From a virus (lineage: Duplodnaviria; Heunggongvirae; Uroviricota; Caudoviricetes), in IMG/VR virus record IMGVR_UViG_2541047857_000011: DNA of 43,118 nt. The stretch is one strand, 5' to 3'. The notes under the pieces were generated by a model, which was not told where the DNA came from, did not search any database, and saw only the letters and a list, made by a program, of their open reading frames with translations. Each line of letters begins with the position of its first letter. Within the stretch, counting starts at the first letter, position 1. Positions 2,110 to 39,063 of this stretch are shown in pieces. The position numbers were made by a program, and so were the translations under genes.

Positions 2110-2119
2110 AGATATCCTT

Positions 2120-7635: not shown

Positions 7636-8114
7636 TATCCCGCCCCCGTCATACCCGTGAATTTAGTCGCCATACTGCCAGCCTTACCGATGAGCGATTC
7701 CGCCTGTTTACCGATATCGCCATAAAGCGCGGCCAGTGATTCATCAACGCGGGTGAGCGACAGCGTAAAATCAATTTTTCGGGGTGTGCCGTCTGCAAAG
7801 AAAATACTCCCTGTTTCACTCACCCTGCTGATGACATACATGCCGTAAATCATGCCGGTGCCATCCAGCAACGGCCACGCCCGGCCTTCCTCTGCCATCA
7901 GTCTGAGCGTGGTCATCGTCAGCTTTCCGCCGGTCAGTTCTGGATAAAGCACACCGGCAAGCGTAATGTTTTCCTCACCCACACCGAGAAACTGGTAGGC
8001 ATCCCGTTTGCCGATACGGGAATTTGACGGCCAGCGATAATCTGATTCACGCTGCATGGTCTGGTGTGGCAGCGTCTGGCGCATAAAAACAAACATACCT
8101 AACGCGAGCATCAT
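7635..8114 (-). CDS. U: P2 gpU-like tail protein
   Basis: 159 aa, in P2 order T-U-D; stop overlaps the D start. Confidence 0.85.
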   Translation of the reverse strand: MMLALGMFVFMRQTLPHQTMQRESDYRWPSNSRIGKRDAYQFLGVGEENITLAGVLYPELTGGKLTMTTLRLMAEEGRAWPLLDGTGMIYGMYVISRVSETGSIFFADGTPRKIDFTLSLTRVDESLAALYGDIGKQAESLIGKAGSMATKFTGMTGAG

Positions 8115-8128
8115 TTTTCGTCACCTCC

Positions 8129-10576
8129 TTAACCGTCATGCATCATGCTGGCACGGGCGCGCGCACGTTTATCCCGCTCGTATTTTTCGAGCGCATCCTG
8201 TAACTGGCGGTCAAGCTGTGTCCCCGGCGCAGTACCACCCGTCAGGCTGATGTGATATTCGTTTTTACTCTGGTCCACATAAGAGCGGCCAGCCGGTGCC
8301 GTGACCGGCTGATAAGCTTGATAGCCTGCATAAGAGCTGGTCGCCGGAATATAACCACCGGTGCCATACGTGGCGGCATGAGTTCTGGCGGCGGTCTGGT
8401 CAAGTGTGTCTGACTCTTTGTTGATGACCCCGAGCTTTTCCAGTACCCAGTCAATGCCGCTGCGCAGTTTGTTGAACGCATTAAGCGGCAGCATCAGCGC
8501 GTCAGCCAGTGCCTGCCCGAACATGACGCCCGTGTCACGGCAACGGTTCAGGGTGTCCTGTGTGGCTTTGACCGGGGCAATCAGGTTTTTAAACCACTGC
8601 CACGCGGCCTGTAACTTTTCGCCCAGCCAGTCAAACACCGGCTTAAGTGGCGTGAACAGTTCCCCCACCGGCGCAAATGCCGCTTTCAGCCCTTCCACCA
8701 CACCGCCAAAGAATGCGCTGACAGGCTCCCAGTATTTACGGATAAGCAACGCACCGGCGACAATGGCGGCCACCACGGCCACAACCGGCCAGCTAATCGC
8801 CCCGATGGCCGTCATAACAGCACTGCCAACCGTCGTGAAGATTGCCCCCATTGCGCCTGCTGCCGCGATGATGGCATTGATGCCAGTGATAACCGGCCAG
8901 GCTACGAGGCCAATGGCACCGATGACAGCAGTCAGCGCCAGTGCACCACCGACAATGAGGCCGATGGTTGACGCCAGTGATTTGTTTTTCTGGATCCAGC
9001 CGTCGAGTTTTAACACATACTTTGTGGCCGTCTGCGTGAGCTTACGCAGTGCGCCTTCCTGCTGGTCAAACAGGTCAGTCCCCACCGCCTCATAAGCGGA
9101 CTGAAACTCCTTAAAGTCACCGCCGAGGTTGTCCTGCATGATATTTACCAGCTCGGCGGTCTTCCCGTCTGAGGCTTTAAACGCAGCGGTCAGTTTGTCC
9201 AGCTTTCCAGTTGAGGCGGCAGTCATCAGCACGGCGGCGGCTGAGCTGGCCTCCTCCCCGAAAATAGTTTTCATGTATTCAGCCTGCTGGGCAGTACCGA
9301 GCCGGTTTTTCTCAAAACTGGCCTGCATTTCTTTCAGAATGGTAAATACTGGTCGAGTATTCCCTTTACTGTCTGAGGTTTTCACGCCAAGCTCTTTCAG
9401 TGCATCCCATGCTTTTCCCGTCGGTGCCTGCAGGCGGCTTAACACGGCACGGCTTCCCGTCCCCGCCATTGAACCGGTAATTTTTGCATCATGCAGCGCC
9501 CCGACCATTGCGGCGGTTTCTTCAATGCTGACACCAGCATTTTTTGCCACAGGTGCGGCATAGGTCAGCGCATCGCTCATGCCATCAAAATCGGCGGCGG
9601 TTTTGTTCATCGTCATGGAGAGAACATCCCCGATATGAGCGACCTTATCGTTTGAAAGCTGAAAGGCGGATTTCATCCCCATCAGCAGGGCGGCGTTTTC
9701 TTCCATCGTGCGACGGTTCGCCAGCGCCATATTCAGCGTGACCGGCGTTGCCGCCTGAATGGCATCAACATCCCCACCGGCTTTCGCAATAATAATCTGC
9801 GCACCGGCTGCATCATCTGCCGAGGCTGCGGTATTGTCGCCGAGCTGGCGCGCCTGCTTGCGTAGTGCAGCCATTTCGGCGGAGTCTTTTGCCACACCGA
9901 GCACAGCCTGCAATTCTGAGTTTTTCTGCGCAAACTCATAACCGGGCATCAGCAACTTAACTCCGGCCATCGTTCCCGCAGCAGCAATCCCCACACCGGC
10001 AGCGCCCACTGAGGCCATATTTCCGGCCAGTTCCTTTCCGGCCTGATAACGCTGTTTTACTGCGTTAAGTTTTGCCTGTTGTGCACTGACACGCGCCAGC
10101 GCGTCACGCTGACGGTTAAGCTGTGCGGTGGTTTCACTGATACGGTTTTTCAGTCCCTGCTCATCATGTGCAAGATTGCGGGTATTAATTCCCACAGCGG
10201 CCAGTTCCCGCTGCTGGCGTTTAATGGAATCTGTCAGGCGGTTATATTTCGCCTGTAAGTCCTCCGCCGCACGCTTTGCGGATTCCAGCACTTTCGCCTG
10301 AGCACGGGTCGGACGTTCAGTGTTTTTAAACTGTGTGGCAAGGGCTTCGGCTTCCTGCCGTGCCTTTTCAAGTGCATGACCAGTCACGGCAAGCTGTGCG
10401 CTGGTCTTGCGAAATCCCTCAATACGGGATGCGTGACCGTTCAGCTCGCGCAGTGATTTTTGTGTTTCCCGGATATCCCCCGACAGCGACTTACTCGCTG
10501 TGCGGATGGATTTAAACGGGCGGGATGCCTGGTCAACAGCCCTGAGCAATACCTGTAATTTTACATTGTTACTCAT
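8129..10576 (-). CDS. T: Tail tape measure protein (P2 gpT-like)
   Basis: 815 aa, Ala/Gly-rich with coiled-coil N-terminus and hydrophobic middle segments; follows E/E'. Confidence 0.9.
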   Translation of the reverse strand: MSNNVKLQVLLRAVDQASRPFKSIRTASKSLSGDIRETQKSLRELNGHASRIEGFRKTSAQLAVTGHALEKARQEAEALATQFKNTERPTRAQAKVLESAKRAAEDLQAKYNRLTDSIKRQQRELAAVGINTRNLAHDEQGLKNRISETTAQLNRQRDALARVSAQQAKLNAVKQRYQAGKELAGNMASVGAAGVGIAAAGTMAGVKLLMPGYEFAQKNSELQAVLGVAKDSAEMAALRKQARQLGDNTAASADDAAGAQIIIAKAGGDVDAIQAATPVTLNMALANRRTMEENAALLMGMKSAFQLSNDKVAHIGDVLSMTMNKTAADFDGMSDALTYAAPVAKNAGVSIEETAAMVGALHDAKITGSMAGTGSRAVLSRLQAPTGKAWDALKELGVKTSDSKGNTRPVFTILKEMQASFEKNRLGTAQQAEYMKTIFGEEASSAAAVLMTAASTGKLDKLTAAFKASDGKTAELVNIMQDNLGGDFKEFQSAYEAVGTDLFDQQEGALRKLTQTATKYVLKLDGWIQKNKSLASTIGLIVGGALALTAVIGAIGLVAWPVITGINAIIAAAGAMGAIFTTVGSAVMTAIGAISWPVVAVVAAIVAGALLIRKYWEPVSAFFGGVVEGLKAAFAPVGELFTPLKPVFDWLGEKLQAAWQWFKNLIAPVKATQDTLNRCRDTGVMFGQALADALMLPLNAFNKLRSGIDWVLEKLGVINKESDTLDQTAARTHAATYGTGGYIPATSSYAGYQAYQPVTAPAGRSYVDQSKNEYHISLTGGTAPGTQLDRQLQDALEKYERDKRARARASMMHDG

Positions 10577-10720
10577 TCGTGTTTCCGCTTCGCCGGAGCG
10601 CCTTTTCGCGCCATGTGATGAGTTCGATCAGGCTCATGGGATACAGTTCTGATGGCGGCCAGTGAAATATCACTGCCACATCCGCCATCAGGTCATCGAC
10701 CGAGAGATTTTTCGGGAACG

Positions 10721-10996
10721 TTACTGCACCGAGTTCGGCGACAAAAAACCGACCACCTTACCGGCCAGCGCCACAAGGTCAGGCAGTTCCAGCGCGGCGA
10801 CTTCCTGCTCGGTCAGCATCGGTGCCGTCATGCGCGGCAGCACCTTAATCAGTGCATCGACTTCGGAGTTCGCGACCGCAGCCAGACTGACACCGCGCAG
10901 CGTCCCGGCATTAGGTTTCATCAGCGTGACCTGTTCGATAACCTGCTCACCACGCTTGACCGGATTGTCCAGGGTAATCACATTTTCTTTGTTCAT
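10721..10996 (-). CDS. E: Tail assembly chaperone gpE (E' made by -1 frameshift)
   Basis: 91 aa, position between FII and T; slippery heptamer near its 3' end. Confidence 0.85.
   Translation of the reverse strand: MNKENVITLDNPVKRGEQVIEQVTLMKPNAGTLRGVSLAAVANSEVDALIKVLPRMTAPMLTEQEVAALELPDLVALAGKVVGFLSPNSVQ
10742..10748 (-). other. Programmed -1 ribosomal frameshift site (TTTTTTG) for the E+E' fusion
   Basis: Minus-strand GGT TTT TTG within the last codons of E, the canonical slippery heptamer position for the P2 E/E' and lambda G/GT tail chaperones. Confidence 0.7.
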
Positions 10997-11052
10997 GGTT
11001 TTCTCACTTCTGAATCGGGGTTAACCGGTCAGCCAGGCTGACCGGATGAAAA

Positions 11053-11571
11053 TCACAGGCCGATATTGCGGCGGTGTTGCTCCAGCCGGTCGACGCCGTT
11101 CACCTTCTCAATCATGTTGATGGTGTCGATTTCGACCAGCTCCTTACCGTCCATCGTCAGCCGGAAATAGGTGCAGACCACGGAGATTTTCGACTCGGTG
11201 TCTTCTCCCTGTTTGCCCTCGCCGGTGTCGATTTCTTTCTGACGTCCACGCATGACCACCTCGACGGCCACCGTTTCGCCGGTATCGTCGCGCTGGTAAG
11301 AGCCTGCAAAACGAATCGGTACGGAATCCACACCGGTTGCGGCGTAAAGCTCCCAGATAACCGAATCCGGGAAGCCACCGAGCGACCACTCCATTGACAG
11401 CGCATCGTCATCAAGGCCGAGGTCTACCGGTGCGCTGCCGTTCATCCCCGCACCGCGATAGTTTTCGAGCTTACGGGTCAGTTTTGGTAGCGTGACGGAC
11501 TTCGCGACGCCCTGATAGCTGTAGCCGTTCAGAAAGACGTTCATTAACTTGAGTTTGCGCGGCATTGCCAT
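11053..11571 (-). CDS. FII: Tail tube protein (P2 gpFII-like)
   Basis: 172 aa, directly downstream of FI. Confidence 0.85.
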   Translation of the reverse strand: MAMPRKLKLMNVFLNGYSYQGVAKSVTLPKLTRKLENYRGAGMNGSAPVDLGLDDDALSMEWSLGGFPDSVIWELYAATGVDSVPIRFAGSYQRDDTGETVAVEVVMRGRQKEIDTGEGKQGEDTESKISVVCTYFRLTMDGKELVEIDTINMIEKVNGVDRLEQHRRNIGL

Positions 11572-11583
11572 CGGTCAGGCTCC

Positions 11584-12774
11584 TTAATTGCTGTTAACCG
11601 AGGTGACCAGATTTGCCAGGTATTTATCGGTAATACGCTGGCGCAGGGTCAGGTTTTCAAGAGGAGGCACCGGTGTATAGTCGTAGTCGATATACAGTTT
11701 TCCGGCCTTGAGGGTTTCCGCATCGTTGGATTCTTCGCTGAACCAGCAGGTCGCATCCACGATATAGCCGTTTGTTTTCAGCTCACGGAATTTGGCATTG
11801 ATGCCGTCAACGATGTCGCGAATCAGCGTTGCGGTGATGGGCTTGTCCACCGCCCACATGTGCGCCTCAGCCATCGTGTCGGCCATCACCTGCGCGGTGC
11901 GGGTGTAGTTTTCAAAGAGGAACAGCGGGTCATCAGAGCAGGTACGGTTACCCCAGAATCGGAAACCGTCGCGGCGAATCAGCGTAGTGACGCCTGACTC
12001 GTTAAGCAGGTCAGCATCGGTGCCGGACTCCTGCAAATCCCAGAATACAGATGCGCTGATGCCGGTAACACCGTTTACCCCGACGTTGGACAGCGTTTTA
12101 TGCCAGCCCTGCTCCTGGTCGATTTTAGCGCGCAGACCCAGCGCACGGGCGGTGGCATACGCGGTGGCGGTGGTACTGGTGACCGTATCCCATGCGAGGA
12201 AATCCGGCCAGATGACCATCAGCTCACGCTGGCTGAAATTCTGGCGGTAGGCTTTCACCTCGGAAATGGTCTTACAGCCCCATGCGCTGATATATCCGAA
12301 AGCGCGCAGCTTCTGACAGACGGATGCCAGTGCAACAGCCACCTCTTTGGTATCCAGTCCCGGCACACCGAGAATACGCGGTTTAACACCGGTTACCGAC
12401 TCCGCCGCCAGCAGGGCTTTTAGTCCGGTGTACTGACCGTTTTCGTCGGTGGTGCCGATGATATTGGAAACGGTCTGCGCGAGTTTCGTTTCCTCGTCAT
12501 CACCGGTGCCGTCTTCCACGCGCACGACAACGGTGACCGGTTTTGACTGGTCAGCGATGGCCTGCAACGATGCCGCCAGCGTGCCTTTTTTACCGGCCTT
12601 TGCAATTGCGCTTTGCACATTGGTAATCAGCACCGGTTTATTGAGGGGGAAGGTTTCCGCATCCGCATCGCTGGCCGTGCAGACCATGCCGACAATGGCA
12701 GTGGATACGGTGGAAATGACGCGGGTGCCGTCGTTAATCTCCAGCACCTGCACGCCATGATGATAGTCACTCAT
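11584..12774 (-). CDS. FI: Contractile tail sheath protein (P2 gpFI-like)
   Basis: 396 aa, same size as P2 FI; first gene of the FI-FII-E-T-U-D operon. Confidence 0.9.
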   Translation of the reverse strand: MSDYHHGVQVLEINDGTRVISTVSTAIVGMVCTASDADAETFPLNKPVLITNVQSAIAKAGKKGTLAASLQAIADQSKPVTVVVRVEDGTGDDEETKLAQTVSNIIGTTDENGQYTGLKALLAAESVTGVKPRILGVPGLDTKEVAVALASVCQKLRAFGYISAWGCKTISEVKAYRQNFSQRELMVIWPDFLAWDTVTSTTATAYATARALGLRAKIDQEQGWHKTLSNVGVNGVTGISASVFWDLQESGTDADLLNESGVTTLIRRDGFRFWGNRTCSDDPLFLFENYTRTAQVMADTMAEAHMWAVDKPITATLIRDIVDGINAKFRELKTNGYIVDATCWFSEESNDAETLKAGKLYIDYDYTPVPPLENLTLRQRITDKYLANLVTSVNSN

Positions 12775-13504: not shown

Positions 13505-14089
13505 TTAAAAGAGACCTTCTATATCGACTTCAATGCCCAAATAACGGACTGTGCTTTCCAGTTTCTTATGGCCCAACAGAAGTTGGATCCCCCGGAGACT
13601 CTTGGTTTTCTTGTAGATTAAGTAAGGTTTTGTTCTTCTCATGGAATGTGTGCTGTACAGCGAATCTTCGAGACCAAGCTTTTCTACCCACCCATGAAAA
13701 ATTCGGTTGTATTGCCGGGTTGATATATGGTGGTTAGTTCCGACCCGAGAGCGGAACAGGAAGCCTTTACTATGCCAGTTGCCGAGCTTTATCAATGCAG
13801 TAACCGCTTCCCTTGTCCCTTTGGTTATCTCAAATTGGACAGGGCTGCCGGTTTTCTGTTGCAACACCGTTGCTCTGCTTGAGACAGAACTGCCATATGC
13901 AGCATCTGATACTTTGAGTTTGACCAAATCACAGCCCCGTAGCTTAGTGTCCAAAGCCATGTTGAACAGAGCTAGATCGCGTGTTTTACCTTCCAACTCA
14001 AGTCTAATCCGGATCCCCCAGATATGAGATATCTGAAGTGGCCTTTTTTGACCGATGGTACGGTCTTTATTCCACGGTGACGTTTTCAT
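13505..14089 (-). CDS. Small tyrosine site-specific recombinase, ~194 aa (FimB/FimE-sized, catalytic core only)
   Basis: Start ATG 14087-14089 has AGGAGA 8 nt upstream. Catalytic signature present: R in TKLRGCDL, K in QQKTGSP, HSMRRT (H-x-x-R), LLGH, and Tyr in STVRYLG. No N-terminal arm-binding domain. Confidence 0.75.
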   Translation of the reverse strand: MKTSPWNKDRTIGQKRPLQISHIWGIRIRLELEGKTRDLALFNMALDTKLRGCDLVKLKVSDAAYGSSVSSRATVLQQKTGSPVQFEITKGTREAVTALIKLGNWHSKGFLFRSRVGTNHHISTRQYNRIFHGWVEKLGLEDSLYSTHSMRRTKPYLIYKKTKSLRGIQLLLGHKKLESTVRYLGIEVDIEGLF

Positions 14090-14195
14090 ATTCAAATCTC
14101 CTGCAATGTGGGAGATTTGAGTATGGTTGTCTCTCAAGAGCGAAAATAAGTCAACTATCACTAGTTGTTGCGCATGTACGTATTCTGTCAATTAA

Positions 14196-15038
14196 TTATT
14201 GACAATCATCAATTCTGGAATGATCAAAATCATCATATCGAATTATAGTCTGGTTGACTGTATCTATTGTTGGTGTCATTTCTGTTATAATATCCTGATA
14301 ACCTAAAGAGTTAAATACATTTACTAAGGCCTCACACCGAAGGGCCGTAGCAATTACAAAATTATAAATTGCCAGCCGTTTATTTTCTTGTTTAACTGCA
14401 AGAATGAATTCGATAGCAGTATTTTCATCACTTTGGATTGCATTATATAGAGATACTATATTTACCATATCATCAGAGAATGTATGTATTGAATCACAAA
14501 GAGGAACGTAATGGGCATGATAGTGTGTTTCCCAGCCAATTAATTCAAAAAGTTTTCTGGTTCCTGGATATTCAGGTGTATTTGGCCACAATCTATTAAA
14601 TAGATCAGTTAGTTCTTTTCCCATGCGAATCCTTTCATTTGCTGCTGGATTAGTCATTCCTTTGGATTTTAAACACTCCAGCCACCGTTTTCCATTACTA
14701 TGAACTAATTTCTTACTAGCCTTGAGTAATGCTTGTGCATTTTCGCCATCATCTATTGCTATATAAAATTGATTGGCAGCCTGTTCTATTATAACCCTAG
14801 CTAATACTTCCGATGCTGAAAAGGCTCCTATATTCAAAGAAGAGATAGCCTGATTACTAAGTTCATTCAGTACATTAAAGTACTGTAAGACCATCAATTT
14901 TTGTTCCACACCCTTTAGGTTGTCTATTTTATTTTTATGCTCCTCAAATTTTGCATGGATATATTTATTTATCGCGGCTATTTTTTTTACATCTTCGTCA
15001 AGATCAAACGGGCAACGTCCAAACAATTCTTTTTTCAT
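14196..15038 (-). CDS. Hypothetical protein, 280 aa, unknown function; co-oriented immediately upstream of the recombinase
   Basis: ATG at 15036-15038 with AGGAGA 6 nt upstream; AT-rich; no nucleotide-binding, RT or nuclease motif recognised. Confidence 0.65.
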   Translation of the reverse strand: MKKELFGRCPFDLDEDVKKIAAINKYIHAKFEEHKNKIDNLKGVEQKLMVLQYFNVLNELSNQAISSLNIGAFSASEVLARVIIEQAANQFYIAIDDGENAQALLKASKKLVHSNGKRWLECLKSKGMTNPAANERIRMGKELTDLFNRLWPNTPEYPGTRKLFELIGWETHYHAHYVPLCDSIHTFSDDMVNIVSLYNAIQSDENTAIEFILAVKQENKRLAIYNFVIATALRCEALVNVFNSLGYQDIITEMTPTIDTVNQTIIRYDDFDHSRIDDCQ

Positions 15039-21242: not shown

Positions 21243-21285
21243 GATTACTTAACTGGCAAAAAAACATCCTCACTAATTGGAGCCA

Positions 21286-22377
21286 ATGGATACACGCATG
21301 TCAGACATTCTAATTACTTATGATGAACGGAAAGATAAATTTGAGTCCTATGCCCTTACTCTTAAATCGTTATTAACCACGTTAATTCGCAATGAAAAAA
21401 TTTCAATTCACTCACTTGAATCAAGAGTTAAAACAAAAAAAAGCCTTGAAGGTAAGATTAATAAAAAGGGAAAATACAAGTCTATAGATGATATTACTGA
21501 TATCGTTGGTATCAGGATCATCACACATTATGCTGATGATGTTGATAAGATAGCTGCTATAGTTGAAAAGGAGTTCACCATTGACCAAGAGAACTCTATT
21601 GATAAAAGAACCTCAATTGCGCCTGATAAATTTGGTTACCTATCACTTCATTATATAGTAACTTTAAACTCAACCAGAACAAACTTAAAAGAATATGAAG
21701 TATATAAAAACATCAAAGCCGAATTACAAATACGATCAATCCTTCAGCATGCCTGGGCGGAGATTGAACACGACATTGGTTATAAGTCGGCCACAGGACT
21801 GCCTAATGAAATAAGAAGATACTTTTCACGCTTAGCTGGTCTTTTAGAAATGGCCGATGATGAATTTATTAAAATCAGAAAAAAGATTTCTGAACGGCAG
21901 AAAGAGGTTGCAAAAGAACTAGAGCAAGGAACTAGTGATTCAGTTTTAGATATTTTCACTTTGGATGAATTCTTAAACACAAGTCGAATTATGAGTGAAC
22001 TTTCAGAAGAGATAAAAGAAAAAACAGGAATCACAGTACATGGCCGATACAAGGATAAAGATTTGGGATACCTACTAAATGGTTTAAACCTAGCCAACAT
22101 AACTACAATAGAACAACTCAATCAAAAACTCTCACAAATGAAAAAGCAGATCGTAGATAGAATATTCTGCTTCGGAGAACCATTTATTAATTATTGCAGA
22201 GAAACCCCCATGCCAAAAGAAGCTCTTTTGAGTTATTTATGTCAAATTATCGTTGCGTTTCAAAACTCACCTTCGTTAGAATCTGAATTTAATAACAAAG
22301 CAGGTTTAAATCTGAAAAACAGCAATATCTCCGATTTTTTCTCGAATATAAGAGAAAACATAAGCACACAACCTTAG
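21286..22377 (+). CDS. RelA/SpoT-homolog toxin small alarmone synthetase with C-terminal extension (CapRel-like fused toxin-antitoxin)
   Basis: Synthetase motifs DIVGIRIITHY, YLSLHYIV and ELQIRSILQHAWAEIEHD in the N-terminal half, then a ~100-aa C-terminal domain; AT-rich; inserted between V and S on the opposite strand. Start could be ATG 21286 or 21298; the track start 21277 is TTG. Confidence 0.75.
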   Translation: MDTRMSDILITYDERKDKFESYALTLKSLLTTLIRNEKISIHSLESRVKTKKSLEGKINKKGKYKSIDDITDIVGIRIITHYADDVDKIAAIVEKEFTIDQENSIDKRTSIAPDKFGYLSLHYIVTLNSTRTNLKEYEVYKNIKAELQIRSILQHAWAEIEHDIGYKSATGLPNEIRRYFSRLAGLLEMADDEFIKIRKKISERQKEVAKELEQGTSDSVLDIFTLDEFLNTSRIMSELSEEIKEKTGITVHGRYKDKDLGYLLNGLNLANITTIEQLNQKLSQMKKQIVDRIFCFGEPFINYCRETPMPKEALLSYLCQIIVAFQNSPSLESEFNNKAGLNLKNSNISDFFSNIRENISTQP

Positions 22378-28831: not shown

Positions 28832-30604
28832 ATGACCATCACCACAGACACCACTCTTTTACACGACCCGCGTCGTCAGGCGGCGCTGCTGTACTGGCAG
28901 GGATTTTCCGTGCCGCAGATTGCCGCCATGTTGCAGATGAAACGCCCGACGGTGCAGAGCTGGAAACAGCGCGACGGCTGGGACAGCGTTGCTCCCATCA
29001 GCCGTGTCGAAATGAGTCTGGAAGCGCGGCTGACCCAGCTCATCATCAAACCGCAGAAAACCGGTGGTGACTTCAAGGAAATTGACCTGCTGGGACGCCA
29101 GATTGAACGACTGGCACGGGTAAACCGCTACAGTCAGACCGGCAACGAGGCAGACCTTAATCCGAACGTCGCTAACCGCAACAAAGGCGGGCGTCGCAAA
29201 CCGAAAAAGAATTTTTTCAGTGACGAGGCCATCGAAAAGCTGGAGCAGATTTTCTTTGAGCAGTCTTTCGAATATCAGTTGCACTGGTATCGCGCCGGGC
29301 TTGAGCACCGCATCCGCGATATCCTGAAATCCCGCCAGATTGGCGCGACGTTTTATTTTTCCCGCGAGGCGCTGCTGCGCGCCCTGAAAACCGGTCATAA
29401 CCAGATTTTTCTGTCGGCCAGTAAAACGCAGGCGTATGTGTTCCGCGAATACATCATCGCCTTTGCCCGGCTGGTTGACGTTGACCTGACCGGTGACCCG
29501 ATTGTCCTGGGCAATAACGGCGCAAAACTGATTTTTCTCGGCACCAACTCCAACACCGCACAGAGCCATAACGGCGACCTGTACGTCGACGAGATTTTCT
29601 GGATCCCGAATTTTCAGGTACTGCGTAAGGTGGCATCAGGTATGGCCTCACAGAGTCACCTGCGCTCGACCTATTTCTCCACCCCGTCCACGCTGGCGCA
29701 CGACGCCTACCCGTTCTGGTCGGGTGAACTGTTCAACCGGGGACGCGCCAGCGCCGCCGAACGCGTGGAAATCGACGTCAGTCATAACGCCCTTGCCGGA
29801 GGTCTTCTCTGTGCGGACGGCCAGTGGCGGCAGATTGTCACCATTGAGGACGCCCTGAAAGGCGGCTGCACGCTGTTCGACATTGAGCAGCTCAAACGTG
29901 AAAACAGCGCCGACGATTTTAAAAACCTGTTCATGTGTGAATTTGTTGACGACAAGGCGTCGGTGTTCCCGTTCGAGGAGCTGCAACGCTGCATGGTCGA
30001 CACGCTGGAAGAATGGGAAGACTATGCGCCGTTTGCCGCGAATCCGTTCGGCTCCCGCCCGGTATGGATTGGTTACGACCCGTCACACCGTGGCGACAGC
30101 GCCGGATGCGTGGTACTGGCACCGCCGGTGGTGGCCGGTGGCAAATTCAGAATACTTGAGCGTCACCAGTGGAAAGGCATGGACTTTGCCACTCAGGCGG
30201 AATCCATCCGCAAACTCACCGAAAAATACAACGTCGAATACATCGGTATTGATGCCACCGGCCTCGGTGTCGGCGTGTTCCAGCTCGTGCGCTCGTTCTA
30301 TCCCGCCGCGCGCGACATCCGCTACACGCCGGAAATGAAAACCGCAATGGTGCTCAAGGCCAAAGACGTTATCCGCCGTGGCTGTCTGGAATATGACGTC
30401 AGCGCCACCGACATCACCAGCTCGTTTATGGCTATCCGCAAGACCATGACCAGCAGCGGACGCAGCGCCACCTATGAGGCCAGCCGCAGCGAGGAAGCCA
30501 GCCACGCCGACCTCGCCTGGGCGACCATGCACGCCCTGTTAAATGAGCCACTCACCGCAGGTATCAGCACCCCGCTGACATCCACCATTCTGGAGTTTTA
30601 CTGA
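28832..30604 (+). CDS. P: Terminase large (ATPase) subunit (P2 gpP-like)
   Basis: 590 aa from MTITTDTTLL with GAGG upstream; stop overlaps the Q start. Confidence 0.9.
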   Translation: MTITTDTTLLHDPRRQAALLYWQGFSVPQIAAMLQMKRPTVQSWKQRDGWDSVAPISRVEMSLEARLTQLIIKPQKTGGDFKEIDLLGRQIERLARVNRYSQTGNEADLNPNVANRNKGGRRKPKKNFFSDEAIEKLEQIFFEQSFEYQLHWYRAGLEHRIRDILKSRQIGATFYFSREALLRALKTGHNQIFLSASKTQAYVFREYIIAFARLVDVDLTGDPIVLGNNGAKLIFLGTNSNTAQSHNGDLYVDEIFWIPNFQVLRKVASGMASQSHLRSTYFSTPSTLAHDAYPFWSGELFNRGRASAAERVEIDVSHNALAGGLLCADGQWRQIVTIEDALKGGCTLFDIEQLKRENSADDFKNLFMCEFVDDKASVFPFEELQRCMVDTLEEWEDYAPFAANPFGSRPVWIGYDPSHRGDSAGCVVLAPPVVAGGKFRILERHQWKGMDFATQAESIRKLTEKYNVEYIGIDATGLGVGVFQLVRSFYPAARDIRYTPEMKTAMVLKAKDVIRRGCLEYDVSATDITSSFMAIRKTMTSSGRSATYEASRSEEASHADLAWATMHALLNEPLTAGISTPLTSTILEFY

Positions 30605-31638
30605 TGAGCAAGAAAAAAGGGAAAACACCGCAACCTGCGGCAAAAACAATGACTGCCAGCGCCCCGAAAATGGAGGCATTCACCTTTGGTGAGCCGGTAC
30701 CGGTACTCGACCGCCGTGACATTCTGGATTATGTCGAATGCATCAGTAACGGCAGATGGTATGAGCCGCCGGTCAGCTTTACCGGTCTGGCAAAAAGCCT
30801 GCGTGCTGCCGTGCATCACAGCTCACCGATTTACGTCAAACGTAATATTCTGGCTTCAACGTTTATCCCGCACCCGTGGCTTTCCCAGCAGGATTTCAGC
30901 CGCTTTGTGCTGGATTTTCTGGTGTTCGGTAATGCGTTTCTGGAAAAGCGTTACAGCACCACCGGTAAGGTCATCAGACTGGAAACCTCACCGGCAAAAT
31001 ATACCCGCCGTGGTGTGGAAGAGGATGTTTACTGGTGGGTGCCGTCCTTCAACGAGCCGACAGCCTTCGCACCCGGCTCCGTGTTTCACCTGCTGGAGCC
31101 GGATATTAATCAGGAGTTGTACGGCCTGCCAGAATATCTCAGCGCCCTTAACTCTGCCTGGCTGAATGAGTCGGCCACGCTGTTCCGCCGCAAGTATTAC
31201 GAAAATGGCGCACATGCCGGATACATCATGTACGTCACCGATGCCGTGCAGGATCGCAACGATATCGAAATGCTTCGCGAAAACATGGTTAAGTCGAAAG
31301 GCCGCAATAACTTTAAAAATCTGTTTCTCTATGCCCCGCAGGGGAAAGCCGACGGCATTAAAATTATCCCGCTCAGTGAAGTGGCGACGAAGGACGATTT
31401 TTTTAATATCAAAAAAGCCAGCGCCGCTGACCTGCTGGACGCACACCGCATCCCCTTTCAGTTGATGGGCGGCAAGCCGGAGAACGTCGGGTCGCTGGGT
31501 GATATTGAGAAAGTGGCAAAGGTCTTTGTCCGCAATGAGCTTATCCCGCTACAGGACAGGATCCGCGAGATAAACGGCTGGCTCGGTCAGGAGGTCATCC
31601 GCTTTAAAAACTACTCACTGGACACTGACAACGACTGA
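30604..31638 (+). CDS. Q: Portal protein (P2 gpQ-like)
   Basis: 344 aa, same size as P2 Q; ends ~170 bp before cos. Confidence 0.9.
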   Translation: MSKKKGKTPQPAAKTMTASAPKMEAFTFGEPVPVLDRRDILDYVECISNGRWYEPPVSFTGLAKSLRAAVHHSSPIYVKRNILASTFIPHPWLSQQDFSRFVLDFLVFGNAFLEKRYSTTGKVIRLETSPAKYTRRGVEEDVYWWVPSFNEPTAFAPGSVFHLLEPDINQELYGLPEYLSALNSAWLNESATLFRRKYYENGAHAGYIMYVTDAVQDRNDIEMLRENMVKSKGRNNFKNLFLYAPQGKADGIKIIPLSEVATKDDFFNIKKASAADLLDAHRIPFQLMGGKPENVGSLGDIEKVAKVFVRNELIPLQDRIREINGWLGQEVIRFKNYSLDTDND

Positions 31639-31807
31639 ACATCGCCGCCTGCGGGCGGCTTTTTTACATCCCGTCATCACGCCCTCACACGCTCACCACC
31701 GCACAAAACACCCCTTAGACACACCAACGCCCCGACGCACAATCTAAACGCCATCACGACGCGCTCAGACGCTGAAAAAATAAAATCAGCACCACCGCCA
31801 GCGCGCA

Positions 31808-31826
31808 GTGCTTTCCCCGCCTCGCC
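31808..31826. other. Phage cos site (19-nt cohesive-end sequence)
   Basis: Plus strand GTGCTTTCCCCGCCTCGCC is the reverse complement of the P2 cohesive end GGCGAGGCGGGGAAAGCAC as I remember it; lies between Q and the old/tin-position cargo gene, as in P2. Confidence 0.6.
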
Positions 31827-31977: not shown

Positions 31978-33810
31978 TCAAACAGAGCCCTGTTCAAATA
32001 CAGTATCAAAATATGGTAGGAGAGGATAAGCACACAGAAAGAAAATCAGGATGCATGCATATGTCGTTGTTTCATCGTAACAAGCATTAGTATATAAATT
32101 ACCATGTGCTAATTTATGTCTTAAGGTTGCCCCACTCTTTCTATTAAAAAGAACATCGATAGTTAAAACAAGATTCTTAGAAAAGATACTTTCCAAATCA
32201 TCTCTGCATTTATCTAGAAGCTGAGAAATACTTGTTGACTCCTCTAATCCCTTATCCAAATATCTAGTAGCATCCTTTCCACTAAGCTCATAATAATAAC
32301 GAACCATACCTTCCATTTGTGGTATTAAAAGATAAGCTGCACTGATGTAATCTCCCTGCCATAATTTGTAAAAGCCCAAATTAAAAATCTCCCTAAACTC
32401 CGGCTTGACAATTGGACTAGTTGTAACTAATTTAACGAATGTTGACAACGTCAAGCCATGTTCTTGAGAAAGTACATAGCGAGCAGGTTCAAAGACACCG
32501 TTTACAAAAATCTTATGAGTAATCTCGAAATTTCTTAGATATTGATCAATAACAACATCATCACTCATATCTTTTTTATTATTCAACGGCGGGATTGTAT
32601 ATACCTTACGCCCACTCTCATCATTAATTTCTGTTCCAACAAAACTAGAGAATAAACTTTTTTCTGATAATCTTAAAACTTGCTCCCTCATGCTTTCAAT
32701 ATTTTCAATCGGTGTTTCACGCATTAAAACTTTGAATATATCGGGCAAAGAACGCCCCGTCAGTTTTTTTTCACTTTCAGCAACCAAGTCACTAATATCA
32801 ATAGAATGGCTTAAAGTGACATATTCACTCCTTACTTCTTCTCTCAAATTAGCAAGTTGTTCCTTTAAATCTTCTATCTGTTGGCTATCACCACCATACT
32901 GTCTTAATTCAGAGATAGCTGTTCTTAACCAAGAGATCTTACCCATATTATCAGGTCGATCTGTTGCAACTTTAATAGTAATATTTGCAGATGCCAGTTT
33001 ACATCTCTTGGCACGTTCATACTCACCATTTTTTTCATAAATAACTGCACTTGTCATATAAAGTGATTTTACAGCATCATAATATTTTTTATCTTTATGC
33101 TGCTCAGCCATCTTCTCAGCATTTTCCGCATACTGCAGATTATACCCATCAAAATCACGCACCATAAACCAAGTCAAATTATTGAAACCTTCAAAGATTA
33201 ATCTTTCATTTTGAATACTATAAAGAGAATGAATGGCATTTTTAATCGCCATGTTTCCTTCTGATTTTCTAGGGTAGACCATTTTATTAATGTGCAAAGC
33301 CCTAGCAATATAATCACGAGCAAAAATAAAGCAATTTAAATCACTTTCATCCATGCTTTCGTTTTTTATTATTAGTTTTTCAATTGCTATATTTAGCATT
33401 TCAGCATAGGAATCAATTGCTTTAATTGCCACGTCTTTGTTTTTCCGGTTATTACACCAAACAACATCATATATTCTTGATAACAAAAATGGATTGGTTA
33501 TTTTTTGAGAAACATATAAAAGACAGTCATTCACCTGCTCATCAAAATCTTCAGGCAATATTGATCTTTTATTACCCCAAATCATTTGGGGTTCAAATGA
33601 TGGAGTGTTGTTAACAACTTGCAAATTGAAACTATATAGCATACCAAAAAGAGATGCTAATTTTTTCTCTTTGGGGTTTCCTGATGATTCAGCAATCCCA
33701 TCCAGATATTTTTTTATTTTATGTGCATGAAATGTAACTGGTATATGCATAAAAACACTATAATCTAGTGTTTCAAGCTCTTCCCTTGTAAGAACAAAGA
33801 TATCATTCAT
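31978..33810 (-). CDS. Large hypothetical protein, ~610 aa, with C-terminal Rx4HG (HEPN-like) motif; candidate abortive-infection effector at the P2 tin/old position
   Basis: Start set at ATG 33808-33810 (MNDIFVLTREE) with AAGGTGA 7 nt upstream; the track's longest ORF starts at 33912 without an SD. Strongly AT-rich. C-terminal LRHKLAHG; no Walker A motif, so not an Old-type ATPase. Confidence 0.65.
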   Translation of the reverse strand: MNDIFVLTREELETLDYSVFMHIPVTFHAHKIKKYLDGIAESSGNPKEKKLASLFGMLYSFNLQVVNNTPSFEPQMIWGNKRSILPEDFDEQVNDCLLYVSQKITNPFLLSRIYDVVWCNNRKNKDVAIKAIDSYAEMLNIAIEKLIIKNESMDESDLNCFIFARDYIARALHINKMVYPRKSEGNMAIKNAIHSLYSIQNERLIFEGFNNLTWFMVRDFDGYNLQYAENAEKMAEQHKDKKYYDAVKSLYMTSAVIYEKNGEYERAKRCKLASANITIKVATDRPDNMGKISWLRTAISELRQYGGDSQQIEDLKEQLANLREEVRSEYVTLSHSIDISDLVAESEKKLTGRSLPDIFKVLMRETPIENIESMREQVLRLSEKSLFSSFVGTEINDESGRKVYTIPPLNNKKDMSDDVVIDQYLRNFEITHKIFVNGVFEPARYVLSQEHGLTLSTFVKLVTTSPIVKPEFREIFNLGFYKLWQGDYISAAYLLIPQMEGMVRYYYELSGKDATRYLDKGLEESTSISQLLDKCRDDLESIFSKNLVLTIDVLFNRKSGATLRHKLAHGNLYTNACYDETTTYACILIFFLCAYPLLPYFDTVFEQGSV

Positions 33811-33926
33811 CGTTTTCACCTTTTTCAGTATAAATTTGCACACATTATTAGCAACATAATTATCAATAGTTAACACATGTAGATAAACAGCAATTTTACT
33901 ATTATGCAACAAATTAAATCAGATGT

Positions 33927-35838
33927 TTATTGCTCTGAATAACAATAAAACCAACTCCACTCATCAGCGACCGGATACGTAAATTTTTTCCCGTTGTAAT
34001 CTACGGTCGCACCACGCGCCAGCGCCTCAAGCTCCCATCGCTGCGGCCTGATACCGTTCTGAGCAAGGTCAACGCGGATACGGGTAATTTGCATTCTTTC
34101 CGACCGGGTCAGTCTGGCCGATGGCGCTATTTCATGCGGTTTTAACGGGCTTCCGTTTCTTTGCTGACGGTTTGGTGTTATCAGGTCGTGTTTTAATGCG
34201 CCCCTGAGCGCCCTCACGACCTCCGGGTCATTCCATTCGATAACACCGTCATCAACCAGATTAAGCACTGCTGCGGCGTGTTCAGAAGGTGTGGGAGCCG
34301 GTAACGAAGTATCACCACTGGTGAGCTTTCCACAGTTATTGACAGGACTCCGAGGCGCGGCGATGCCGCTTTTTAAAGTCAAAGGCTCCACGACCGGAAC
34401 TTTCGGAACAATGCGCCAGTCCGTCGTTCTGGTGATATGAATATGACGCGCGCCGAGATGCGGCGCGTAAATGCCGACCACTCTCTCGACTTCTTCCTCG
34501 TACTCGTTAACTTCATCCGACGGGCTACGGGCGACTCTGACAGTCTGGCAATCGCGCGGAACATTTGCCCCACCCTGCGCACTGATATACAACGCAAAAT
34601 CGCCACTGTCTGCGGCAGCGCGTGCAGCCTCGACGCGTTCGTCAAACTCATCAGCAATGCTGACGCCGCGAGGCAATTTGCGTAGTTCACGGTAAGCCCC
34701 CATTGTCGGCAGACCAACCGTTTTAAATTGCGGGATGCGCCACGTTGACGCCCATGCAGTAACAGCCGCGGCAGTATCTTTCAGAGGTCTGCCGGTATCG
34801 TTATCGAGCTGACCATCCAGTGCATAGCCGTCGATATTTTTTGAAATGTATTTCGCGATATATCCCGCAGCACCGCCCCGGTTAAGGTGCTTTGCCTGAA
34901 AACGGTTTCGCGCGGCTCCTCTTTCGTCACCATCCTCTTTGAGCGCATAGCGACGCATGATTTCGATAATCTGATTACGCTGGCGTGGATTACAAAAAAG
35001 CATCATATGCCAGTGCGGCGTTCCGTCGTGGTGTGGCTCGACGACACGCAAACCGTAGACCTGTAAATCATTATCCTTGAATGCCGTGCGCATCAGGCTC
35101 CAGATGCGGCAGAGATAACGCTGCGCATCCTTTGGATTAAATGCCTCATCGTTCCAGCCGTGATTTAGCTGGACGGTTTTACTTTCGCCTTTTCCGACCT
35201 GACGTGTCGGGTGATACTTTGACGGCGCGGTCAGCGTGATAAACATCCCCACATCACCCTCTGCGGCGGCGTAACGCTCAATACCGGCAATGGTGTTCAT
35301 CAGCTCCATCCGGCGAATTTCAGGATTAGAAATACTTCCCATCACCTTACTGATAAGGTCGATGCGCTCGCCGGTTTCCCTGTTTTCAAGGTCACACGAT
35401 TTAAGAAATTCCAGATTTGCCTGGCGGCGCGCACGCACATCACGAATGGCATGTTTACTGGCATAAGGAGAACGGTCTTTATTGACCTCCCCGACAGCAA
35501 TCAGTAACGCTTCATGCCAGCGCATACGCTGACCTTTAAGCTGATGAGTCCACCACTCATCGTTAAACAGGCGGGCAATGGCAGAATATGCCTGCCTCGT
35601 GGTCATCTGTCCTTTACGGTATTTTTTCCAGTAAAGCGGGGAAATATTGAAAGCACGTGCAGCGCCAGCAACATGACCATACAGGTGAGCCTGAGCCTCA
35701 TCCGTAAACAGTGATTCTTTTTCGCCATGCGCATCCCCCCAGGCATCGCTGATTTCCTCATACATCATGAAAAGCTGCGATGAGATACGGGCGGCAAACT
35801 TTTTCAGCTCCTTATCATTCATCCCCGGCAGACGCGCA
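33927..35838 (-). pseudogene. A: P2 gpA replication initiation protein, C-terminal ~637 codons, separated from its 5' end by an IS insertion
   Basis: Reading frame continues ...ARLPGMNDKELKKFAARISSQLF... as in P2 A; the apparent ATG at 35873 lies inside the IS end. Confidence 0.85.
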
Positions 35839-35923
35839 TGCGTATTACCGTGAAGGAGATCGGTGAGTAACATCGATGGAGATCGGTTCGTGTCACTTTC
35901 ACAGAACCGTTTTTAAATTACCT

Positions 35924-36673
35924 TCACTGATCTCCTTCGGTCAACGGTGATTGTATTTTCCGCATTGATTCTCCTTTAAGTTCGATCTTGATACTGCCAT
36001 GAACCAGTCGATCTAGGATGGCATCCGCATGTGTGGAGTCTCCGATCATTTTGTACCAGTTTTCCACCGGCAACTGGCTCACTACGATGATTGAGCCTCG
36101 TTGGTACATCAGATCCACTATTTCCAGCAGGTCGCTACGCTGTTCTGATGAGAGAGGTTCCAGCCCCCAGTCATCCAGAAGCAGCAGATCGCTATTATTC
36201 AGCCTGGTCAAAAGTTTGCTGTATCTTCCATCAGCATGCCCCTGATAGCACTGTTCCATCAGCGCTTTAAGGCGATAATAGTAGACCTTGTATCCCTGTC
36301 GGCAGGCATTATGACCAAGTGCACATGCCAGGAACGTTTTACCGCTGCCGGTGGCCCCGGTCAGTAAAATATTTTGTTTCAGGGTTAACCAGTTTCCCTG
36401 ACTGAGTGAACGGATGAGGGCCCTGTCCAGCCCTCTATTGTTACGATAATCCAGCTTTGATAACTCAGCATTAAGTCTGAACCGTGCATGTTTGATCAGA
36501 CGCTCTGCCTTCCTGTTTTCACGGCAGGTTAGTTCTTCTGCTGTCAGTAATGACAGGCGTTCTTCGAAGCCCAGCTCCTGGTATGTGCCCGGCTGAGCAA
36601 GTTGCTTTTTAAGCGCATCACGGAAGCCGGTGAGTTTAAGTGCGGTCAGTTGTTCGTAAAGATGATTCATCAT
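35924..36673 (-). CDS. istB: IS21-family helper ATPase IstB
   Basis: 249 aa with Walker A GATGSGKT and Walker B LLLLDDWG; immediately downstream of istA. Confidence 0.9.
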   Translation of the reverse strand: MMNHLYEQLTALKLTGFRDALKKQLAQPGTYQELGFEERLSLLTAEELTCRENRKAERLIKHARFRLNAELSKLDYRNNRGLDRALIRSLSQGNWLTLKQNILLTGATGSGKTFLACALGHNACRQGYKVYYYRLKALMEQCYQGHADGRYSKLLTRLNNSDLLLLDDWGLEPLSSEQRSDLLEIVDLMYQRGSIIVVSQLPVENWYKMIGDSTHADAILDRLVHGSIKIELKGESMRKIQSPLTEGDQ

Positions 36674-36684
36674 TGGATCCCGTA

Positions 36685-38226
36685 TCAGTGGTAATACTCA
36701 CTGCCGCGTACGTTTTCGTGTTCCATCGTGGATAACAGATCTGGTTTTGGATCCTGAACAGGTTGTTTATCCAGACCTTTTTCCAGGATCGATTTAATAC
36801 CTGACAGACGCCATACCTTTGTTTTCAGAGCTCTTGCACATGCTGCATTAAGTCTGGCTTTACTGTATTTTTTATGAAGGTTCAGGAGTCCAAGGCAGAA
36901 GCGATAGCTTTGTTCCGGATGTGGACGAGAGTTCAGTATATGAAGCACATAACTATGAGTTTCACTGCCTATGTGCCCCGCCCATTCCAGAAGACGCTCT
37001 GGCGTCCAGGTGGCATGCTGTCGATGAGCTTCAGGCATGTGCTCGTTGCGGGTACTGTAGCCATAAGTACGCTTGCGCGGGTGCACAGCAACCTCCTGCC
37101 CCTGATTGAAGAGTCTTACCAGTTCTCCGGAGATCCATGCTTCCAGTTGCTGGCCTAACAGCGAACATGGAACCGAGTAGTAATGTTTGTCGATTTCCAC
37201 GTGGTAATCGGCATGAACTCTGACTTTCTTCACCAGGGTGTAACTGTAACTGGCTTCAGGAAGAGGCTTCAGTGCGGGTTTATCAAGCTGGATGAAGAGT
37301 TCTGCACGTGAATAACCCAACTTCTGCATTATTTTGTTATTCAGTCTTTCCAGCAACTCCCGAATGCGCTGATTAAGCGATGCAAGGCTGTAGAAGATCT
37401 CATGCCTGATTCGGGCCATGATCCAGCGTTCAACAACCTGAACGCCAACTTCAGCTTTGGCTTTATCTTTCGGTTTACGTGGCCGCGCAGGCAAAACTGC
37501 GACATTATAATGCTCAAGCATCTGCTGGTAGGTAGGGTTAACGTCAGGATCATACTTACATGCCCTGGATGTGGCGCTTTTCAGATTGTCCGGAACAACA
37601 AGTTCAGGAACGCCACCCAACCACTGGAAGCAGCGAACATGACTCATCACCCAGTCTTCAAGCTGCTGAGACCAGGTGGCCTCTGCCCATGTGTAACTTG
37701 ATGCCCCGAGAACAGCTACGATGACCTGAGCAGTTCTTATTTCTCCGGTCTCAGGGTCGGTAACGCCAACGGTAGGTCCACAGTAATCAACGAAAAGTTT
37801 TTCGCCAGCTTTATGTACCTGACGCATTGATGGTGAAGTGGTTTTGAGCCATTCACGGTACATCCGGCAGTAATGGTTATAGCTGTAAAAACCGCCTGGA
37901 TTACGCTCACAGTATTCTTCCCAGAGTAGCTGCAGCGTCACGCATTTATTACGCAGTTCCCGGTGTACTGTAGCCCAGTCAGGCAGAGAGTGCTTCTTCA
38001 TCTTAACCTGGGTCTGAAGGAACGCATGTTTTAGTTTTGTATCATCCCATCCTGTAGGTAAGGGCCACTGCTTTATGCCAAGTTGAGCCGCCCGATTAGC
38101 ATATCTGGATACAACGGAAGGGGAGATTGCAAGACTACGACCAATTTGTCGATGGCTGAGTCCAACACCGTATTTAAGCCTAAGAATTTCTTTAAGTTTT
38201 CTCATAGAAATTGGAACTGTTGGCAT
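36685..38226 (-). CDS. istA: IS21-family transposase IstA
   Basis: 513 aa with an N-terminal helix-turn-helix region and a DDE-type core; paired with istB. Confidence 0.85.
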   Translation of the reverse strand: MPTVPISMRKLKEILRLKYGVGLSHRQIGRSLAISPSVVSRYANRAAQLGIKQWPLPTGWDDTKLKHAFLQTQVKMKKHSLPDWATVHRELRNKCVTLQLLWEEYCERNPGGFYSYNHYCRMYREWLKTTSPSMRQVHKAGEKLFVDYCGPTVGVTDPETGEIRTAQVIVAVLGASSYTWAEATWSQQLEDWVMSHVRCFQWLGGVPELVVPDNLKSATSRACKYDPDVNPTYQQMLEHYNVAVLPARPRKPKDKAKAEVGVQVVERWIMARIRHEIFYSLASLNQRIRELLERLNNKIMQKLGYSRAELFIQLDKPALKPLPEASYSYTLVKKVRVHADYHVEIDKHYYSVPCSLLGQQLEAWISGELVRLFNQGQEVAVHPRKRTYGYSTRNEHMPEAHRQHATWTPERLLEWAGHIGSETHSYVLHILNSRPHPEQSYRFCLGLLNLHKKYSKARLNAACARALKTKVWRLSGIKSILEKGLDKQPVQDPKPDLLSTMEHENVRGSEYYH

Positions 38227-38419
38227 AGGTATCCTTTACCGGAATGGCAAAAGATACAGATCAACACACCTGTGAAGTTCCAATAACATTGATGGAGATC
38301 ACTGAATAACAAAATGAGTCAAAAGTGATCTCCATCGATGTTATTCAGCGATCTGTTCAAATGTTATTACCCGATCTCGATGGAAGTTATTGAGTGATCT
38401 CCTTTCATGAAAATACGCA

Positions 38420-38798
38420 GACGCGCATAATGGTCACGCTCTGCCAGAAACAGCAACGACGCGTCGGTGTTCATTTCATGGCGCTGATTCACACGCTCAA
38501 TGCGCGGCCATAAACGACGCTGAAAAGTGGATGTGAGGAAATAAAACCCGTGCACCGGGCTTTTATTGCGCCGGATGTAGTCATAGCGTGAAGTAAACAG
38601 CGAGCGCAAAAAGTAAGGCAGGCGATTAATCGTGGATAAAACACCTTGCACCTGACGCATCTCGTCACGTGTAAGGGGTCTTTCGCGCCCGACGGCCTCG
38701 CGTGGCGCATTCCATGCATAAGCACCGGTAAACGTCTCACCGGTGCCTGCGGCAAATGCTGACGGAGGGACAAAACGCCCGGAGGCTTTAACGGCCAT
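38420..38798 (-). pseudogene. A: P2 gpA replication initiation protein, N-terminal ~126 codons (5' fragment upstream of the IS)
   Basis: MAVKASGRFVPPSAFAAGTGETFTGAYAWNAPREAVGRERPLTRDEM... up to ...LAERDHYARL, then the frame runs into the IS end. Confidence 0.85.
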
Positions 38799-39063
38799 AT
38801 GAGCCAAAAGCCTCTGAACAACGCCTGCTGAGTTGCTCAACCTGCGCGTTTAAATCAGCGAAAGACTTTGCGCTTCCGGTCAGAATATCGTGATGCATCA
38901 GGCCGGAAACGAGCTGGCTTAATTTCGGGTAATAACCAACCACTGCCAGCCATTCCTGACCGGCGTTTTTACCGCTTTCCGCTCTCTTTTTCTCGTGGAG
39001 AATAAACTGAAAGCTGTCACTGGTAACGACATAACGTTCGCCAATTTCAATACGAATACTCAT
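38788..39063 (-). CDS. P2 early-region small protein (orf83-class), 91 aa
   Basis: Position directly upstream of A in the early operon; overlaps neighbouring genes by a few bases. Confidence 0.6.
   Translation of the reverse strand: MSIRIEIGERYVVTSDSFQFILHEKKRAESGKNAGQEWLAVVGYYPKLSQLVSGLMHHDILTGSAKSFADLNAQVEQLSRRCSEAFGSYGR

Follow-up and report, generated by a model that had tools for sequence, protein, structure and literature searches.

HEPN domains carry a short signature that comprises an Rx4-6H motif, a polar residue (N, D or H) directly after the arginine, and, further upstream, a conserved acidic residue that typically belongs to an Ex3[KR] motif of helix 2 (PMC3710099). In the survey of Anantharaman et al. 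2013 (PMC3710099), a HEPN family named "C6orf70", with which the Pfam model DUF4209 overlaps, was described as catalytically active; its bacterial versions were reported as "fused to TPR" and "in R-M related operons". That survey was the only mention of DUF4209 found in our literature search, by which no paper naming DUF7380 or WP_000997854 and nothing on ERMARD together with HEPN could be found. To our knowledge, activity has been demonstrated for no C6orf70/DUF4209 member, either bacterial or eukaryotic.

Another HEPN protein of relevance is the anticodon nuclease PrrC, the paradigm of a latent RNase, which belongs to the type Ic restriction-modification (R-M) system EcoprrI. Its C-terminal HEPN RNase is encoded between hsdS and hsdR and is preceded by a regulatory N-terminal ABC ATPase. 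PrrC is silenced by its R-M partner and is freed when the T4 protein Stp disables that partner.

The site studied here, between gpA and cos of P2-like prophages, is the old/tin locus of P2, and partition systems and cdt toxins are also carried by this hotspot (PMC9122126). Rousset et al. 2022 (PMC9122126) listed 193 occurrences of system #13, "DUF4209", among 18,150 P2 hotspots. The gene of strain S88 and the native region upstream of it were cloned as pFR103 ("Putative HEPN") and screened against eight phages on a low-copy plasmid under the native promoter (PMC9122126). It is found among the "additional tested systems" of Table S2B and is absent from the "validated defense systems" of Table S2A; of the eight additional P2 systems, only three were reported as active, and these do not include the pFR103 gene (PMC9122126). 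The encoded protein also corresponds to the PADLOC candidate PDC-S39, the PDC set comprising 145 untested candidates whose source genes lie within BREX, DISARM and type I R-M systems as embedded genes (bioRxiv 10.1101/2024.01.29.577857).

Here, we analyzed a 43,118-nt stretch of DNA (IMG/VR record IMGVR_UViG_2541047857_000011, hereafter the window) that carries the same gene, identical to that of S88 including its flanks. The gene, its HEPN assignment, its residence in the hotspot and its status as a candidate defense gene are already published. The present analysis adds that the catalytic residues are invariant throughout the family and that the predicted fold supports the HEPN assignment; it also provides evidence against the annotated transmembrane (TM) segment and for a gene without partners.

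The P2 hotspot locus and its cargo gene

The prophage in the window is P2-like and comes from Escherichia coli, and strains S88 and MS7163 match the region at 100% identity. When P2-like phages were compared, conserved sequence ended at ~31870 and resumed at ~33957; thus, the variable cassette contains one gene only. As the initial annotation had proposed from the position of the P2 tin/old locus, this gene is the sole cargo between gene A and cos (Table 1). The cos core string also flanks the P4 cos-proximal clones of Rousset et al. Among 5426 complete E. coli genomes, about 2160 have P2-type flanks and 55 carry the gene, in all 55 cases between gene A and the portal gene.

The initial annotation placed an AT-rich gene for a protein of about 610 aa at 31978-33912. 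These coordinates hold for the maximal frame in the ORF list, which begins at a TTG codon and encodes 644 aa; for the gene itself, the 5' end has to be moved, as the true start is almost certainly the ATG at 33810. This ATG is preceded by AGGTG, yields exactly 610 aa, and is the start used both for the protein listed by Rousset et al. and for the identical RefSeq entry WP_000997854.1 ("DUF7380 domain-containing protein"). The described AT-richness is evident from composition counts (GC 0.332 in the ORF vs 0.553 and 0.531 in the phage genes on either side). A promoter scan upstream of the gene gave matches not above the shuffle expectation in such AT-rich DNA, and scans of the cassette for Rfam families and repeats revealed no ncRNA family and no repeat or antitoxin-like array.

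Table 1. Coordinates of the cargo gene, its encoded domains and motifs, and the neighboring P2 features in the window
Feature	Position	Strand	Remarks
CDS, 610-aa DUF7380/DUF4209 protein	31978..33810	-	Stop codon 31978-31980; = WP_000997854.1; full-length matches to PHROG 5183 and PADLOC PDC-S39
DUF7380 domain, N-terminal (aa 4-184)	33259..33801	-	Pfam PF24098
Middle region, all-alpha, TPR/SNAP-like helical repeats (aa 185-420)	32551..33258	-	Most variable part of the protein
HEPN domain, C-terminal, C6orf70/DUF4209 type (aa 465-606)	31993..32418	-	
Ex3R motif EGMVR (E500-x3-R504), second HEPN active-site motif	32299..32313	-	E 100%, R 99% conserved (137 sequences)
Rx4H motif RHKLAH (R564-H565-x3-H569)	32104..32121	-	End of predicted helix 3
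AT-rich upstream non-coding region, part of the variable cassette	33811..33957	-	RBS AGGTG 33821-33817; three sigma-70-like sites
P2 replication gene A, C-terminal part	33927..35873	-	One hotspot boundary, upstream of the HEPN gene
P2/P4 cos core GGCGAGGCGGGGAAAGCAC	31808..31826	-	Other hotspot boundary, 150 bp downstream of the HEPN gene stop
Portal gene Q	30604-31638		Beyond the cos core

Several further features of the prophage were recorded. A strong terminator-like hairpin follows the portal gene (31644-31659, + strand). Gene A is interrupted by the IS21-family element ISEc12 (35924-38226, - strand; istB 35924-36673, istA 36685-38226), beyond which an N-terminal gene A remnant ORF is found at ~38367-38840; the prophage in the window is therefore probably replication-defective. 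The cargo gene itself does not differ from that of system #13/pFR103; the prophage in the window additionally has this insertion in gene A, and in strain S88 the same IS lies in the capsid gene instead.

Other AT-rich islands were also observed. One (GC 0.38), located among the prophage morphogenesis genes, contains a gene at 21277-22377 (+ strand) for a 366-aa RelA/SpoT-domain protein (Pfam PF04607, E 2e-21; PADLOC PDC-S33, E 1e-16), which may be a toxSAS/CapRel-like second defense candidate of the same prophage. Another (13505-15038, - strand; GC 0.35-0.41) encodes two proteins, a short one of 228 aa that resembles tyrosine recombinases (Phage_integrase E 6e-17) and one of 280 aa with DUF5677. 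PADLOC matched neither of them, and the island is probably another P2 moron slot. Outside the prophage, positions 1-4050 (- strand) hold a low-GC (0.37-0.44) trio encoding DUF4034 (715 aa), DUF1266 (238 aa) and PcfJ-like (404 aa) proteins, with no PADLOC match.

Domain architecture and conservation

The protein consists of three parts: DUF7380, a TPR-like helical-repeat middle region, and a predicted HEPN domain of the C6orf70/DUF4209 type. The HEPN fusion offered in the initial annotation as one of its readings is supported, the partners being DUF7380 and the TPR-like repeats; it is not new, having already been catalogued under the label "Putative HEPN". In Pfam searches with the query itself, DUF7380 was matched at E 1.2e-39, and DUF4209 (PF13910) was matched over aa 524-590 below its gathering cut-off (19.5 bits vs 22.3, E 1.1e-3). 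Among 53 diverse full-length homologs, all 53 contain DUF7380 and 49 contain DUF4209, with a best DUF4209 E-value of 9e-13. The two PADLOC PDC-S39 HMMs span nearly the whole protein (PDLC05011, aa 40-598, E 8.3e-85; PDLC05012, aa 7-596, E 1.3e-83), PHROG 5183, whose function is unknown, covers its full length, and an NCBIfam search returned no family. Because nearly all relatives match from end to end and nearly all of the 53 share these domains, the architecture is a fixed unit.

In DUF7380, a set of polar and aromatic residues (R82, D88, R112, D115, W118, Y135 and R170) is conserved at 93% or more each. Profile comparison revealed no similarity between DUF7380 and the HEPN domain, and no internal HEPN duplication emerged when the C-terminal domain was compared by hhalign with the N-terminal or the middle region (probability at most about 1%). 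Sequence varies most in aa 1-60, 141-160 and 181-240. Near the end of the middle region, a beta-hairpin (aa 393-406) modeled with low confidence contains the near-invariant residues D397 and G400.

The presence of an Rx4-6H motif by itself is not beyond chance, since 1.55 matches are expected in a protein of such composition and three are present. An alignment of 137 family members with 20-30% identity to the query separates them: R564 and H569 are each conserved at 100%, while the corresponding values for the other two matches are 34%/7% and 84%/39%. Thus, R564-x4-H569 stands apart as the only conserved pair. E500 is likewise invariant in this alignment; R504, P497, G400 and A298 are conserved at ~99%, G560 at 98% and G570 at 96%, and the polar residue directly after the motif arginine, H565, is a histidine in 79% of the family. 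All items of the published HEPN signature are therefore present in R564-x4-H569, H565 and E500-x3-R504. The motif LRHKLAHG, with which the protein had been said to end, is real, and its RHKLAH core lies 41 residues before the C-terminus.

Predicted fold of the C-terminal region

The full-length AlphaFold2 model (pLDDT 80, pTM 0.53) is all-alpha with two small beta-hairpins. Searching the whole model against PDB retrieved only TPR, SNAP, MIT and designed-repeat proteins; these matches describe the middle region and are uninformative on the C-terminus. Matches to HEPN folds comprised AF0298, a "HEPN domain containing protein" (6.3), AbiA (6.0), TTHA0636/1wwp (5.9), the sacsin HEPN domain (5.6), two MNT-associated HEPN toxins (5.4 and 5.3), YutE (5.1) and LsoA (5.0). 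In the models, helix 498-509 contains E500 and R504 and is followed by an insertion of short helices and a disordered loop; RHKLAH is placed at the end of helix 559-569, and then come a low-confidence loop and a long helix (580-604). The predicted topology is that described for HEPN domains (PMC3710099). Sequence and profile searches of PDB found no solved relative of the 610-aa protein. The signature residues, Pfam DUF4209 and the predicted fold together support a HEPN-type domain at the C-terminus, as the initial annotation had suspected from the motif and had proposed to check by profile searches and structure prediction.

Two readings that would deny or modify this assignment can be weighed against the same evidence. 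That R-x4-H is fortuitous and the C-terminal region a generic, non-catalytic helical bundle might be argued from the number of motif matches expected by chance, from the helical-repeat proteins that alone were returned by full-length fold searches, and from the sub-threshold DUF4209 score of the query. This reading is largely refuted by the conservation and fold results above, and we regard it as extremely improbable. A membrane-anchored HEPN protein, similar to eukaryotic C6orf70, with helix 580-604 as a TM anchor that would bring the enzyme to RNA at the inner membrane, is suggested by the "1 TM" given for the 610-aa protein in Table S5B of Rousset et al. (PMC9122126), by the hydropathy profile, whose top 19-residue window is aa 587-605 (1.78), and by the single TM segment described for C6orf70 (PMC3710099). 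[quoted passage not shown] Since the segment is a core helix and so often charged at position 591, the annotated TM segment is considered a false positive; anchoring is very unlikely, and the bacterial DUF4209 proteins are probably soluble.

Homologs and their genomic neighborhoods

A single-protein search and two profile-alignment searches each identified the same 21 close enterobacterial relatives. All distant relatives were obtained by searching 1.84 billion cluster representatives with a profile, which returned 3357 relatives at E ≤ 1e-3 and 614 at E ≤ 1e-30, nearly all of them 600-640 aa long and matching end to end. In Klebsiella variicola, Kosakonia cowanii and a metagenomic contig, orthologs (64%, 55% and 53% identity) sit at the corresponding position of P2-like or 186-like prophages. 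In two of these three loci, small ORFs unrelated to each other are found beside the gene, which shows that there is no fixed partner or antitoxin. A second and clearly different DUF4209 protein, beginning with MSEFDVFSISVDDF, is listed for the E. coli P2 hotspot as system #55 with 76 occurrences (Table S5B, PMC9122126); thus, at least two DUF4209 lineages circulate at this hotspot.

For distant relatives, 80 loci were found with the subset of homologs sharing LIPQLENSL; they span Alpha- and Gammaproteobacteria, Verrucomicrobia, Desulfobulbaceae, Latescibacterota and Chloroflexota. The immediate neighbors are mixed, and recurrence is limited to HTH regulators, resolvases, integrases, relaxases, transposases and DNA methylases; many homologs adjoin ordinary metabolic genes. 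The commonest neighboring protein cluster occurs in only seven of the 80 loci. This result and the unrelated ORFs beside the orthologs led us to discard a conserved partner or antitoxin, in agreement with the single-protein, stand-alone gene proposed at the outset.

Several distant homologs are embedded in defense operons. In four loci (L072, L073, L077 and L079), the gene directly follows hsdM-hsdS, with gene ends touching or overlapping. One of these, L073 (Desulfobulbaceae MAG, 7884-12108), has the gene and a CBASS pair (SAVED-HNH and CD-NTase) nested between hsdS and hsdR. In a Rhodoferax MAG (L080, 3736-13711), the gene lies between a PglX-like methylase gene and that of an unannotated 1363-aa protein, with a second ORF of 621 aa downstream. 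Moreover, in five Pseudomonas loci the gene is separated by a few kb from a type I R-M system. Such embedding in type I R-M systems is the same criterion that defined the PADLOC PDC candidates. The context of the family is mobile and defense-associated.

Comparison with known systems

One close likeness is to the C6orf70/ERMARD HEPN proteins. The DUF4209 matches of its homologs, with the query itself below the gathering cut-off, would place the 610-aa protein in the same subfamily, and both the Rx4H and the Ex3R motif are kept. The architecture and context described for bacterial C6orf70 versions are also seen, namely the TPR/solenoid fold matches of the middle region and the loci with hsdM-hsdS-X-...-hsdR or PglX-X order. 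The eukaryotic proteins differ in being described as ER-membrane proteins, and the N-terminal domain of the bacterial ones is now modeled separately as DUF7380.

The position of the gene between hsdS and hsdR in distant homologs (L072, L073, L077 and L079) resembles that of PrrC. In contrast to PrrC and its ABC ATPase, the 610-aa protein has no NTPase motif and carries DUF7380 and helical repeats instead; and whereas PrrC is embedded in an R-M system, the E. coli gene has no adjacent one. The lack of an ATPase domain, together with R-M embedding in the distant homologs only, places the protein outside the PrrC/RloC group.

The ApeA- or Abi-type membership considered in the initial annotation did not hold. 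No match to ApeA/HEPN_Apea was obtained in Pfam or PADLOC even at E ≤ 1, and no Pfam or PADLOC profile of the Abi HEPN families (AbiD/F = Abi2, AbiJ, AbiU2 and AbiV) matched. The ApeA and Abi HEPN proteins also differ in size and N-terminal architecture, and the cassette, unlike AbiF, contains no Rfam ncRNA or repeat array. The exclusion of the Old family, on the other hand, was correct. Old is an ATPase-TOPRIM nuclease; the 610-aa protein contains no Walker A motif ([AG]x4GK[ST]) and gave no ATPase, TOPRIM or OLD match. With old and tin, whose phage exclusion is documented (PMC9122126), it shares the locus between gpA and cos, but the proteins are unrelated.

Proposed function and its alternatives

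With somewhat better than even confidence, we interpret the gene as a stand-alone cargo of the peduovirus (P2/186-like) hotspot whose product would be a self-inhibited, infection-triggered HEPN endoribonuclease serving in an abortive-infection-type defense of the lysogen. By analogy with other HEPN enzymes (PMC3710099), the domain would be a metal-independent endoribonuclease that cuts RNA by means of H569, R564 and E500, and, judging from PrrC, RloC, RNase L/Ire1, Csm6 and RnlA, its active site would be composed when two HEPN domains dimerize. Because no antitoxin is present, the RNase is probably held inactive by the N-terminal and repeat regions of the protein itself. An infection cue, possibly a phage protein or, as with PrrC, the loss of a first-line defense, might then free the RNase. 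Cleavage of tRNA, mRNA or rRNA would arrest the cell and abort the infection, which would shield the lysogen population and the prophage. Since the hsdS-X-hsdR order of distant members recalls PrrC, a guard-type trigger is a reasonable hypothesis, and it would also explain the negative result of the small-panel screen.

The main alternative accepts the HEPN domain and makes the gene a prophage moron without anti-phage function, whose role might lie in the processing or regulation of RNA, in host fitness, in competing with satellites or plasmids, or in maintaining the prophage. It would fit the failure of the identical gene to be validated against eight phages and the partition systems and cdt toxins that the hotspot also holds (PMC9122126), the housekeeping RNA roles predicted for eukaryotic C6orf70 relatives (PMC3710099), and the ordinary metabolic genes next to many homologs. 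Nevertheless, we consider it unlikely: type I R-M and BREX-like operons harbor family members, as does the vicinity of CBASS, and it was from such embedding that the PADLOC candidate was defined; the distribution is sporadic and borne by mobile elements (55 of 5426 E. coli genomes), and the composition of the gene is atypical of its flanks. Moreover, the eight-phage panel was narrow, and defense is not excluded by a negative result, as the source papers emphasize. A more specific and rather improbable possibility is that the DUF7380-TPR-HEPN family is an ATPase-less counterpart of PrrC, i.e., an RNase, perhaps one that cuts anticodons, that stays latent while guarding first-line defenses such as type I R-M or BREX, or that senses anti-restriction factors via a conserved DUF7380 pocket. 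As such a protein would fire only at phages with the matching trigger, the negative eight-phage screen would be explained.

If the protein is an active, infection-triggered RNase, as in the interpretation we favor, it would add to known defenses a widespread single-gene system with more than 3000 cluster representatives at 50% identity in Proteobacteria and several other phyla. DUF7380 would then be a new sensor module, and the protein would be the first characterized member of the C6orf70/DUF4209 HEPN clade, which reaches eukaryotes. Should the family prove to be an ATPase-less PrrC counterpart, it would offer the first biochemical handle on C6orf70/ERMARD, which is conserved across eukaryotes.
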